A stretch of 64,000 bases of DNA, taken from the NCBI GenBank assembly GCA_964016885.1, contig OZ024766.1, positions 21,638,001 through 21,702,000 of the forward strand, read 5' to 3'. Source of the stretch: Eledone cirrhosa. Taxonomy: Eukaryota. Position 1 is the stretch's first letter. Each line of letters opens with the position of its first letter. This document shows, piece by piece, positions 49,722 to 64,000 of this stretch. The notes below the pieces were generated by a model that did no database searches, was not told the origin of the DNA, and saw only the letters and a program-made list of their open reading frames with translations. The position numbers and the translations under genes were made by a program.

Positions 49722-52700
49722 ATGGATTCCCTGACTACGAGCACAGCACCTGGCATTGAATGCGCCCCGGGCGGCCCATTGTCGTCGAGGGCTCGACAGT
49801 TCAAGTGCCAGTACTGTGGGAAGGACTTTGACCGGTACAGCCACCTGGCGAGGCATCTGAAGATTCACACGGGGCTCCGGCCCTTCGAGTGCAAGTACTG
49901 CCAGAAGGCGTTCTCCCGCTCTGACAACCTCATCAAGCACGTCCGCATCCACACGGGCGACAAGCGCTACGGCTGCGAGTTCTGCCTGAAGCGCTTCACC
50001 GACTCGAGCAACCTCGGCAAGCACCTGCGCACCCACGCAGGTCGCGGCGGGGGCGGCGGCGGGGGCCAGCGCTACACCTGCACGCTGTGCTCGAGGACGT
50101 TCCGCAAGTCGGACACGCTGCGTCGGCACCTCTCCACGCACGGCGGCGGCGGCGGCGTCGTCCCCTCGGAGGGCGGCGGCGGCGGCGGCGGCGGCGGGGG
50201 TGTCAGCGGTTGCGGCGGTGGGGGTGGTGGCGACAATGGTGGCAGCAGCGGCGGCTGCGACGGCGGTGGCGGTGATATTGACGATGGCGGTGGTGGTGGC
50301 GGCGGCGTCGCGTTTCGGGACAGCGTTTCTGTTGGAGGCGGGGGAGCTCACAGCCAACAGCGCCACCACCGCCTCCAGCAGCAGCAGCAGCACCACCTGC
50401 AACAACAACAACAAGAACAACGGCGGCGCGGCGTCGGCGTCGCAAACGCCAAATGCAGCAGCAGCAGCAGCAGCAGGCGACGCAGCTCCTCCGCGTCGCT
50501 GCTGTCGCTCAGCGACGCGGCCAACGTCGCCGCGGTGGCGCAGAAGTGCAGCGAGATGCAGAAGATCCTGCGCATCATCAACGAGGAGAAGTCACTGAAA
50601 TGCCCCGCCTCCTCCGCCGCTGGCTCCCCCTCCGCCGCCTCCACCAACACAACAACAACAACAGCAGCAGCAGCGACGGCAACGGGTGCAGATCTGCACC
50701 CCGCGCGGCTGCTGCTGCTGTCGCGGCGGCTGCAGTCGCCGAGCGGGTCGGAGACGAGCGCAGCAGTCGGCGGCGGAGCTGGCGCGCCCCTCGGCCCTCT
50801 CGTCGTCGGCGGACCTTCAAATGCGAGAAAGTCTACGTTTTCAGGGAACCCCCCCTCATCCTCCTCCTCCTCCTCCCGCTCCCCGCGCTGGCGGCCGGGT
50901 AACGGAGCCGACGACGTGAAGTTCACGCCCGATGTGGCGCTTGCGTCCCCGGCCTTGATGGATGTCTTCAACAGGGCCGACTTCATCGTTAAACGCCTGT
51001 CACGGATGACTGACATCGACCCGGTCGCCATTACTAACAACAGTAGCAATAACAGTATTAGTAGAAGTAGTAGTAGTAGTATTAGTAGCGGTAGTGGTAG
51101 TAGTAGTGGGATCAAAGCAAAGCGGAATAGAGCGAGGTCACTGAATCGTAGCGATATCAACCTCAATCGTGTTTTTCCTTATTCATCATCTGAGCCCTTA
51201 ACTGCTCAGATCGGCCTTAAAAGTTCTGCCGGTCCGTCAGGCGCTGCATTGGGTCACTCTGTCGGCGGGGGATCTCATCGCGTCGACACGCACAGCGCCG
51301 CTCAGTTCCCGGTGGCCTTCCAGTGCAGCTACTGCTTGATGCAGTTTTTCTCGAGGACCTCGCTGGAAATGCACATACGCGGACATCTGGAAGACTTTGG
51401 TGAGGGAGACGTGTCCCAGCTCCTCGTAGGTAGACAGTTTGAAGAGAGCAACAACGAGGAGGATTTGTCGAGCATCGGTACCAAAGAGGGGCGACGATTG
51501 GGAGTTGATGACGGAACTTTGCAGGCTTCTTACATAAATGGGGGCTTGGAAACTGTGGGTGAGGACTTTCCAAAGGTTCTTATTAAGAGAGAATTTCAAA
51601 AATGTGGTAGCGTGACTGTTGACAGTACTCAATCTTCAGCTATTGGAGCAAAAACAAACTTTAAAGATCTCAACGCAGTAGAGGGCTCTGTGGGAGTCCC
51701 GTACAAATGTCACTATTGTGAGGCGATATTCACAAGAGCCCTAGCATTAGCAGAACACCTTAAAAGCCACGTTAGGCGTCGGCTTGAGTGTAGGAACTGC
51801 AAGGTTTCTTTCAACTCTAGTGTGCAGTTGTCCAGACACCGGAGACTGTGTCCAGTCCAGCACCGAGACAAGATAGATATGGAACAGCGAAGGGTTTTAT
51901 CTGCGAGGCTGCTCGGTGGGAGGCCATTTCTGGACCCTCAACCAATCACGATACAGAAAAGTAACGACGACTCAACTCCCCATTACCAGCTTTCGTCGGC
52001 GCTAGACAACGACGTCGTCCGACAGCGGCGTCTTTCGTCGACGAGACTTCTCGGAGGCCGACCGCTGCTCAGTTCCCATTTAACGTCGACACGCGGAAGT
52101 AGCGATGAATCAGCACGCACTCATCAGCTGCTGCCAGGGATCGGAAGTTCCGCCCCCTCGGAAATGGACGAAGTGTCGTCGACGCTGAAAATCAAACAGG
52201 AGGTAATGTCGTCCGATAGTGACGCCGAGGATAACAACAAAGTCGTTGCCGATGGCAACAAGAACGACATCGGAAACTCAGAGTACTCAATACTGTTGCG
52301 AAACTGTCCGTCAGAGCTCAACGGTGTTCTGGGAAGTACAGAGTACTTGACAAACCTTCTGCATCAAACTGACTCCACGGACACTCTAAATATGTTTGGT
52401 AAAGCAAGGAAGAGGAGATATCAACAAGGAAACACGTGTATTACCTCTGATGATGTTGTTGGTTCAGCGGCTGGTTATTCTGCCAGTGGTGGTGGTGGTG
52501 GCGTCCATATTGCTGCCCCATCCTCTGACGCCATCTACAAGCCAGAAGAGGAAGATGCGGGGAGGAGCGAATCCACTGCCGGCCCAGACGGCTCGGTGGA
52601 TGCCATCGTTGCCAAAATTCTCAACAACATCGCGAAAGCGTCCGGACACAATCCCCACCTCCAACACATCAAACAGGAAGTAAAGGAGGAGAACGAGGCA

Positions 52701-53429
52701 GAAGAGCAGATATGGGGAGAAGGGGTGGACGATGGTGGAGAACCAATCGGTCTATCGACAGGTAAACCCTTTGAGAATTTCACCCCTCTGGGACAGATTT
52801 CTTCGGATCAGCACCTGCAGGCGAAAATCTTCATCAAGAAGAGTTCAACTTCTCCGAACAACAATAATAATAATATTGTTGGACAATATGAGCCCTTGGT
52901 GTACGAGGGTGTTGTCCTGAAGACGGAAAAATTGTTTGATTCTGTGATTGATGGCAGTGGTGGAGGAGATGATGGTGGTGGAGTTGGCGGAGGTGGTGGT
53001 GATAAAACAAAGTGTTTCGGTTCTCTAAGCTGTCCAGAACGTTCCGGTAGGTTTTCGGCCATCAACGAACAACAGCGACCGCAATATCAACAGCAACAAC
53101 AACAACTACAGCAACAGCGACAGCCGCCGTCATCTCTGTCAAGTCCACCGTCTTCACCGAAATCGCGACAAGTCTTGAAAAGAAAGCCAACCATGGCCGT
53201 GGCGAAGAAGGCGATTACGCAGGCACCACCTGATTGTCTGGCTGGCCACGAGGACCCGAGATGGAGCTCATTGTCACCATCATATACTCATGCCGACCAC
53301 CCTGCTGTAGAACTCAACAGGGGAGACAACTGGTACGACAGAAAGCGTGCGAAGGTGTCAGACGGCGACGGACCCCAAGATATCGAAATCCTCCGTCCCA
53401 AATTTACGACAACCGTCCTTGCTACTACA

Positions 53430-53468
<39 letters not shown>

Positions 53469-63455: not shown

Positions 63456-63495
<40 letters not shown>

Positions 63496-64000
63496 TGCAA
63501 CAAGATGAAAACGTGTCCGAAGCAGGGAACAGCATGATAGCCTCAGCATCACCGTTGTTGCCGATGGCAACGAGCTTGATACCGATCTTGAAGAGAAAAC
63601 TGCAGCTTCACCAACGTGTGGGAGGTGGTGGTGTTAGTGGTGCGGGTGGTGGTGGTGGTGGTAGTGTTAGTGGTATGGGTGGTGTTGGAGGTAGTGGTGG
63701 TGGTGGTGGTGTTAGTGGTATGGGTGCTGGTGTAGGTGGTATTAATAGCAGTGTCGGTGGTAGTATGGGTAGTGGTATGGGTGGAGGTAGTGTTACTGGT
63801 ATAGGTGGTGGCAGTGGCAGTGGTATGGGTGGTGGTAGTGTTAGTGGTATTAGCAGTATGGGTGGTGGTAGTGGTTTAGCTAGTAGTATTGGTAGTGGTT
63901 TAGGTGGTGGTATTAGCAGTATAGGTGGCGTTAGTGGTATTAACAGTATGGGAGGTGGTAGTGTTAGTGGTATTAGTGGTATGGGTGGTGGTAGTGTTAG
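49722..64000 (+). CDS. Giant uninterrupted C2H2 zinc-finger protein ORF, >=4759 codons, 3'-truncated by the window
   Basis: ATG 49722 is the first ATG after an in-frame TGA at 49668. MDSLTTSTAPGIECAPGG...FKCQYCGKDFDRYSHLARHLKIHTGLRP... I translated many segments without a stop, and no closed ORF in this frame is in the ORF track, as expected if it runs off the end. About 11 C2H2/C2HC fingers: 49800-50141 (4), ~51318-51386, ~51702-51851 (2), 54051-54287 (3), ~55398-55460. Confidence 0.92.

Follow-up and report, generated by a model that had tools for sequence, protein, structure and literature searches.

A giant C2H2 zinc-finger gene with dispersed finger modules in the octopod Eledone cirrhosa

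The locus and its reading frame

The DNA considered here, referred to as the window, is a stretch of 64,000 nucleotides (nt) of Eledone cirrhosa (assembly GCA_964016885.1, contig OZ024766.1, positions 21,638,001 to 21,702,000 of the forward strand). It holds two genes lying head to head (Table 1): upstream, a GGA gene on the minus strand (6000-36919, with its ATG at 36919) and, on the plus strand, a gene for a very large protein with C2H2 zinc fingers dispersed along its length. This second gene, termed here the finger gene, is the subject of this report. Positions are those of the window, and beyond 64000 they are window-equivalent.

A plus-strand frame without stops extends from 49671 to the window end, with an ATG at 49722 and 4,759 codons inside the window. 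A preliminary description of this DNA had given the frame as open from 49722 to the window end, and the stop scan agrees, with zero in-frame stops. The extension that it anticipated was found by reading neighbouring contig sequence, where a TGA at 65259-65261 (contig 21703259-21703261) closes the frame. The complete coding frame comprises 15,540 nt and 5,179 amino acids (aa) at contig 21687722-21703261 on the plus strand, and a search of the species' own genome likewise gives a 5,196-aa open frame at this locus.

When the open reading frame (ORF) was shuffled in 300-nt blocks (n=200), the shuffled versions had a mean of 231 stops and a minimum of 199, compared with 0 in the real frame. In the ten 1.5-kb bins entirely within the ORF, this frame has 0 stops and the other two plus-strand frames have 5-74 per bin. 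With about 231 stops expected and none observed, a chance ORF in low-complexity DNA is ruled out. The second-longest stop-free stretch of the window, 942 aa, lies inside an AT microsatellite. The 113 kb of sequence read around the finger gene contains no N, and a distal unique stretch of the gene has one full-length match in the 2.996-Gb assembly, so that stretch exists as a single DNA copy. The open frame is a real gene, with a very large and maintained coding frame for a dispersed C2H2 protein, as had been proposed.

Table 1. Features of the finger gene and its surroundings (positions beyond 64000 are window-equivalent)
Feature	Position	Strand	Basis or comparison
Coding frame, first 4,759 of 5,179 codons	49722..64000, continuing to 65259-65261	+	Stop scan; shares its start Met with O. 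sinensis XP_036369847/849 and is colinear with it
Finger module 1, four fingers: RYSHLAR, RSDNLIK, DSSNLGK, KSDTLRR	49800..50141	+	92% identity with O. sinensis module 1 over fingers 1-3
Three isolated fingers, aa 533-555, 661-683, 688-710	51318..51851	+	Conserved in O. sinensis
Finger module 2, three fingers: KATQLSR, RSDNLVK, DSSNLTK	54051..54287	+	84% identity with O. sinensis module 2
54-nt array plus a trinucleotide run coding for Ala/Thr, in place of O. sinensis finger at aa ~1454	54342..55230	+	Repeat scan, alignment
Conserved block with degenerate finger at its end (canonical in O. sinensis)	55332..55463	+	O. sinensis comparison
78-nt and 57-nt minisatellites, in place of O. sinensis His-rich stretch and finger pair (aa 1854, 1882)	55850..56770	+	Repeat scan, alignment
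Largest coding minisatellite, ~25 units mostly of 75-84 nt, Ser/Asn/Asp/Leu-rich	57159..59222	+	Repeat scan, anchor intervals
30-nt and 51-nt minisatellites with conserved sequence between (IKQE motif, aa 3482)	59645..61097	+	Repeat scan, alignment
Conserved non-finger blocks aa 3785-3825, 3960-4019 and shared psiKxE at aa 3927, 4280, 4301	61074..62906	+	O. sinensis alignment
Poly-Gln tract; first part of a ~300-aa Gly/Ser/Met insertion that O. sinensis lacks	63348..64000	+	Repeat scan, alignment
Finger module 3, four fingers: RPSHLKR, RSDNLTK, DSSNLTK, ESRTLSR	64533-64862	+	Fingers 1-3 92% identical to O. sinensis-type module 3
Non-coding 49/52-nt satellite ending ~35 nt before ATG	48357..49687		Repeat scan
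GGA first coding exon, 37 nt	36883-36919	minus	Sequence reading
GGA 560-nt exon	9954-10513	minus	Sequence reading

An orthologue in Octopus sinensis

Among proteins of 2,617-8,329 aa, the sole candidate relative is LOC115225209 of Octopus sinensis, which is 93% identical across the first finger module. Its RefSeq isoforms (XP_036369847-849), which are uncharacterised, have 3,240 and 3,250 aa and differ solely at the C-terminal tip. The protein begins at the same Met (MDSL) and is colinear with that of E. cirrhosa to the last finger, with 1,311 identities among 3,083 aligned pairs. Similarity extends colinearly beyond the fingers over the whole length, with blocks conserved at each end and also in the distal third; on this evidence the finger gene is assigned as the orthologue of LOC115225209. 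The two proteins share three modules with the same helices, the same order of isolated fingers and conserved blocks, and seven psiKxE motifs. They differ in that the E. cirrhosa protein has nine coding minisatellites, another C-terminal tail and 1,929 aa (59%) more, lacks three canonical fingers, and has one finger that is degenerate. Thus, the gene is not hidden in the sense of unknown, as had first been thought: an orthologue of 3,240/3,250 aa is already annotated in RefSeq, giant disordered finger proteins are known, and the case is unusual mainly in size. The O. sinensis isoforms (P0199, P0200) split at aa 3234, suggesting a splice donor just before the stop, and the E. cirrhosa protein has a similar end (GGRRGQVEGE), with a weak CAG/GT there.

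Every block conserved with O. sinensis sits in one genomic frame, and a strict splice-motif scan found no donor-acceptor pair flanking only repeat arrays of the finger ORF. The whole coding sequence is likely to lie in one giant exon, given this single genomic frame. Contigs from four runs of one study (X1-X4), whose kind is not recorded, were compared over 49600-50040. X1 and X2 span 49661-50040 and X4 spans 49671-50040, with 0-1 differing letters and no gaps; X3, from a far smaller run (88 versus ~1,400 million letters), spans 49887-50040, and nothing was concluded from it. No splice joint was seen over this interval, a result not counted as support, since the contigs may include the source sample.

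Finger modules

By pattern, the full protein has 14 canonical C2H2 fingers plus a degenerate one near aa 1893, and 11 of the 14 lie in three modules, at aa 27-140 (four), 1444-1522 (three), and 4938-5047 (four). The preliminary count of about 11 fingers holds for the window, which contains ten canonical fingers and the degenerate one; the accompanying statement that all lie in the first ~1900 aa is also right for the window but fails for the full protein, given the four of the last module. The modules form three tandem sets of at least three fingers of the form C-x2-4-C-x12-H-x3-5-H with canonical linkers, and Pfam zf-C2H2 is above cut-off in three segments. The other Pfam families matched fall on the fingers themselves, and Pfam detected no effector domain (KRAB, BTB, SCAN, SET, ZAD), either in the window protein or in the full-length model from O. 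sinensis. No long uninterrupted finger array makes up the bulk of the protein, as in the coleoid poly-finger type. The longest run is four fingers, and finger residues amount to 325 of 5,179 aa (~6%), in keeping with the earlier view that the gene is unlike the tandem poly-finger C2H2 genes.

The three modules are paralogous. Their mutual identity is only 63-70%, yet RSDNL and DSSNL are unchanged in all: the helices of fingers 2 and 3 read RSDNLxK and DSSNLxK in every module, and finger 1 varies (RYSHLAR, KATQLSR, RPSHLKR). Of the 27 three-finger modules placed in a tree, the nine with RSDNL/DSSNL fall together in one starred clade (96/94), within which modules cluster by position across species (supports 85/81, 93/95, 97/93). 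This grouping, which has moderate to good support, places the repetition of the module before the species split; long branches leave the deeper joins of the tree unsure.

Coding minisatellites and the gain in length

The spacer between modules 1 and 2 is 1,304 aa, versus 1,146 in O. sinensis, and that between modules 2 and 3 is 3,416 aa, versus 1,747. Much of the gain consists of coding minisatellites, together with Ala/Thr, Gln, and Gly/Ser/Met runs. After arrays of low-complexity units had been excluded, the consensus length was divisible by 3 in 9 of 9 minisatellites inside the ORF versus 18 of the 40 in the rest of the 113 kb (Fisher p = 0.0025). It had been argued beforehand that such triplet units speak for selection on the frame. 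The difference in period upholds this in part, but triplet periods follow from the open frame and are therefore not a second independent proof of coding. Every one of the 28 anchor intervals taken from 56700 onward across the largest array is a multiple of 3 despite the varying lengths, and the units of this array are diverged and recur in a higher-order pattern. Its 26 aligned units carry 7 synonymous and 17 non-synonymous variants, with possible changes of 52:180:11 (synonymous:non-synonymous:stop). The amino-acid changes look near-neutral, and the triplet periods show a kept frame rather than a function of the repeats, which look like tolerated spacer. The finger pair that O. sinensis has at aa 1854 and 1882, where E. 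cirrhosa has minisatellites, was found neither in the 113 kb nor among 150 scored genome-wide candidates (best E 3e-6).

Since these arrays show no amino-acid constraint and little match to O. sinensis, they might be in-frame introns (exitrons), spliced always or sometimes, such that the main protein would be nearer 3,300-4,000 aa. Donor-like motifs are present at 56248 and 59587, introns of the region are full of minisatellites, and triplet periods occur in 18 of the 40 non-coding arrays as well. However, there are 0 stops over 55,700-60,200, compared with 32-68 per 1.5 kb in the other two plus-strand frames, and the anchor intervals of the biggest array stay multiples of 3 though their lengths vary. 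Furthermore, the strong acceptors in the ORF (55495, 63000, 63213) cannot bracket the arrays without removing conserved blocks, and the repeat unit resembles, by eye, a Ser/Asn/Thr-rich coding segment of O. sinensis. Lineage-specific exitrons are consequently regarded as quite unlikely.

An alternative is that misassembly of the repeats has raised their copy number and so the apparent length, or that the gene is decaying. Much of the gain does lie in near-identical arrays (units of the 51-nt array are 100% identical, those of the 78-nt array 96%), and several isolated fingers have been lost. Against this, the contig is 22.4 Mb long, the 113 kb was read without N, and the biggest array has diverged units in a higher-order pattern. 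In addition, the three modules and seven SUMO motifs (see below) remain conserved and intact, and the 15.5 kb contain no stop. Inflation or decay is judged very improbable.

Sequence outside the fingers

Outside the fingers, 69% of the 4,854 residues belong to the set S/G/T/A/N/Q/D/P/E and 2.8% are aromatic. Basic clusters resembling nuclear localization signals are present, and a hydropathy scan of the finger protein gave no 19-residue window above 1.6. The protein has 116 N-x-S/T sequons; a secreted mucin-like protein was considered and rejected, as there is no hydrophobic segment and fingers lie on both sides.

The psiKxE motif, the consensus for attachment of the small ubiquitin-like modifier (SUMO), occurs ten times versus 1.5 expected, and none of 1,000 local shuffles reaches ten. 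The O. sinensis protein has 11 such motifs, again versus 1.5 expected. Seven of the ten are aligned in place between the species, four of these past aa 3400. SUMO recruits co-regulators bearing SUMO-interacting motifs (SIMs), and these are most often repressive.

Structure prediction was uninformative. An AlphaFold2 model of aa 3927-4626, built from two sequences, had a mean predicted local distance difference test (pLDDT) score of 32, with 639 of 700 residues below 50 and the poly-Gln helix alone confident. Leads from the ESM Atlas for aa 3927-4026 were ankyrin-like, below 0.9 and of low recognition, and were not used.

Relatives and other dispersed-finger genes

A query of non-finger sequence (aa 3801-4526, 726 aa), run against 1.84 billion representatives, matched one relative, a 626-aa protein that by eye is a near copy of the O. 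sinensis C-terminal part. A further protein, P0048 (ENA, 1,236 aa), has two RSDNL/DSSNL modules and isolated fingers in the same order. It differs in that the record lacks the third module and has short spacers, and it may be an orthologue, a paralogue, or a truncated record. ESM Atlas results for P0048 were generic dispersed-finger clusters (Ikaros-like, ZNF646, MECOM) of low recognition and were not used. The adjacent RSDNL/DSSNL pair occurs in one of the 76 matches listed (P0048) and in none of the best 120 of 7,015 matches, a set crowded by poly-finger proteins. In a metagenome scan, 0 of 79 loci had the pair and 2 had RSDNL alone, and a PDB search gave generic fingers only. In the main texts searched, no paper was found that names LOC115225209, and there was no relevant report of a repeated-module finger class, of single-exon cephalopod finger clusters, or of low-complexity coding repeats in octopus.

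Within the genome itself, finger searches in which 150 candidates were scored each (214 matches in one of them) revealed no close paralogue, the best other matches being 54-59% identical in the fingers. They did reveal at least two further long single-frame finger genes. One, on contig C10 (~11516800-11524400, minus strand), encodes 2,537 aa in one frame starting at Met; its 25 C2H2 fingers are spread over seven dispersed modules, which share the finger-2 helix NPSN(L/M)xR; it too has no close paralogue among the scored candidates. The other, on contig C17 (~18185600-18192600, plus strand), encodes 2,323 aa in one frame, and its 33 fingers lie in dispersed modules that repeat xxSDxxR and QxSNL helices. 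The finger gene is thus not alone, as two other single-frame dispersed-finger genes of more than 2,300 aa are present in the genome.

Several known systems resemble the finger gene in part. Human ZNF469 is described as having a single coding exon, 3,953 aa, ~74% disorder, few C2H2 fingers, and poor conservation, and its supposed in-frame intron turned out to be coding (PMC12226416, PMC3925994). The finger protein is likewise giant, with few C2H2 fingers and mostly low-complexity sequence, and may be viewed as a functional analogue with a probable single coding exon. However, the 7-8 fingers of ZNF469 are mainly C-terminal, whereas the finger protein has repeated modules at its start, middle, and end; ZNF469 was also not among the candidates of 2,617-8,329 aa (one candidate). 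ZNF236, which is found across bilaterians, shares dispersed modules of 3-4 fingers with helices repeated between them. It differs in having ~30 fingers in ~1,800 aa and the helices KPSQLER/QKGAL, KPSDLVR/VKSTL, and KSSHLKQ/S.GVL, a series absent from the window protein, and its modules fall outside the window clade. By these comparisons, the window protein does not belong to ZNF236 and probably not to ZNF469 either. Finally, an expanded C2H2 repertoire has been described in coleoids (PMC9068888). The finger gene is like it in having TGEKP-like linkers and in coming from an octopod genome rich in finger genes, and unlike it in being conserved between species, with so few residues in fingers.

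Surrounding sequence

The GGA gene is identified by Pfam from its VHS exons and adaptin-ear exon; its middle exons, not matched by Pfam, presumably encode GAT. The range of 37-560 nt given earlier for the exons of this neighbour is confirmed, as exons of both lengths can be read in its sequence. The ear exon appears to be partly duplicated, with 8053-8134, 9068-9129, and 9338-9408 repeating parts of 8540-8737.

The satellite before the finger-gene ATG belongs to a 48-52-nt family that is also found at 14124-14672, 18900-19413, 21449-22031, 24899-26399, and 45032-45260 and is very abundant in the four runs compared above. In the array nearest the gene, most units contain a TTTACAG resembling an acceptor, and this overlaps a donor-like GTGAGT. 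In the last unit, next to the ATG, the donor-like motif is gone and the pyrimidine tract is better; an AG there, at 49667, is a candidate splice acceptor. Other plus-strand candidate sites between the two ATGs are donor-like (42517, 46045) and acceptor-like (44223, 47800), and these are candidates for serving non-coding 5' exons of the finger gene. In O. sinensis, two accessions exist for one protein isoform, which would fit alternative untranslated regions (UTRs). On the 3' side, a 148-nt tandem array lies at 65807-66435, ~550 nt past the stop; because the first AATAAA/ATTAAA after the stop is at 67414, the 3' UTR may be more than 2 kb long and take in repeats.

A model for the finger protein

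Taken together, these results have led to a reading that is considered probable, if well short of certain: the finger gene, as the orthologue of LOC115225209, would encode a nuclear transcription factor from one giant exon, with three modules predicted to read the same short G-rich word and with disordered, SUMO-modified spacers between them. In this model, an unspliced coding exon would yield a protein that is nuclear and mostly disordered. The conserved helices and basic clusters make it likely that the protein binds DNA and acts in the nucleus. By the finger recognition code, each module would bind a word near 5'-(G/T)AC(G/T)AGG(G/A)(G/T)-3'. Fingers 1-2 of the modules resemble helices of yeast Msn2, and yeast Msn2 binds AGGGG. 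Several modules could add avidity on clustered sites, and SUMOylation at the conserved lysines would recruit SIM-bearing, most often repressive, co-regulators. The repeats, for their part, would be tolerated spacers that grew by slippage and unequal exchange and were filtered for frame and stops only. Long exons have been described as tending to code for disordered parts of nuclear proteins, and one of the routes to them is the expansion of repeats (PMC9825244).

It should be noted, however, that several observations weigh against this model. The window shows no enrichment of the predicted site (5 matches versus 6.7 expected), and since the modules have different first fingers, their three target sites may not be the same. 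There is no good acceptor directly before the ATG except the one within the satellite. About one stop would be expected among the variants of the largest array, so that finding zero is not significant, and the repeats at aa ~2040-3200 (~1,100 aa) have little O. sinensis counterpart and show no amino-acid constraint. Furthermore, three canonical O. sinensis fingers (aa 1454, 1854, 1882) are absent from the array positions here, one finger is degenerate, and one atypical finger lacks its cysteines in comparison with O. sinensis; constraint in the middle of the protein has consequently loosened.

A rival proposal is that the three modules bind three copies of one site and so loop or compact chromatin, for example in repeat-rich DNA, with spacer length tuning the reach. 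The same helices are indeed kept in three modules across the very long spacers of both species, and the C10 and C17 genes, one of which has seven modules, repeat this design with other helices. The conserved SUMO motifs would fit heterochromatin factors. Predicted ZNF sites have also been tested against transposons, octopus included (PMC10547256). However, none of the five matches to the unenriched predicted site lies in the adjacent satellite, and the second spacer has been doubled by neutrally drifting repeats, contrary to a tuned length. ZNF236 shares the bead layout, and none of the papers found shows looping by ZNF236. Architectural bridging is, on balance, unlikely for this protein. A similarly speculative and doubtful extension is that octopods have a class of giant one-exon "beads-on-a-string" finger proteins, of which this genome would hold the three described here, with 3-7 module copies reading one DNA word at several places and joined by disordered tethers studded with SUMO sites. 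Such proteins might act in chromatin architecture or repeat silencing without a KRAB-like domain, their reach evolving fast via coding minisatellite expansion.

Significance

The finger gene alone reveals no new mechanism. If it is one exon, that coding exon is 15.5 kb long, bigger than that of ZNF469, while the exons of its neighbour are far shorter, and repeat masking could easily fragment such genes during annotation. The comparison with O. sinensis provides a clean case of a transcription factor that has grown by 59% via coding minisatellites, with its DNA-reading modules and SUMO motifs fixed and isolated fingers lost. The repeated-module design, present in at least three genes, provides a testable handle on cephalopod finger proteins that have no recognized effector domain.

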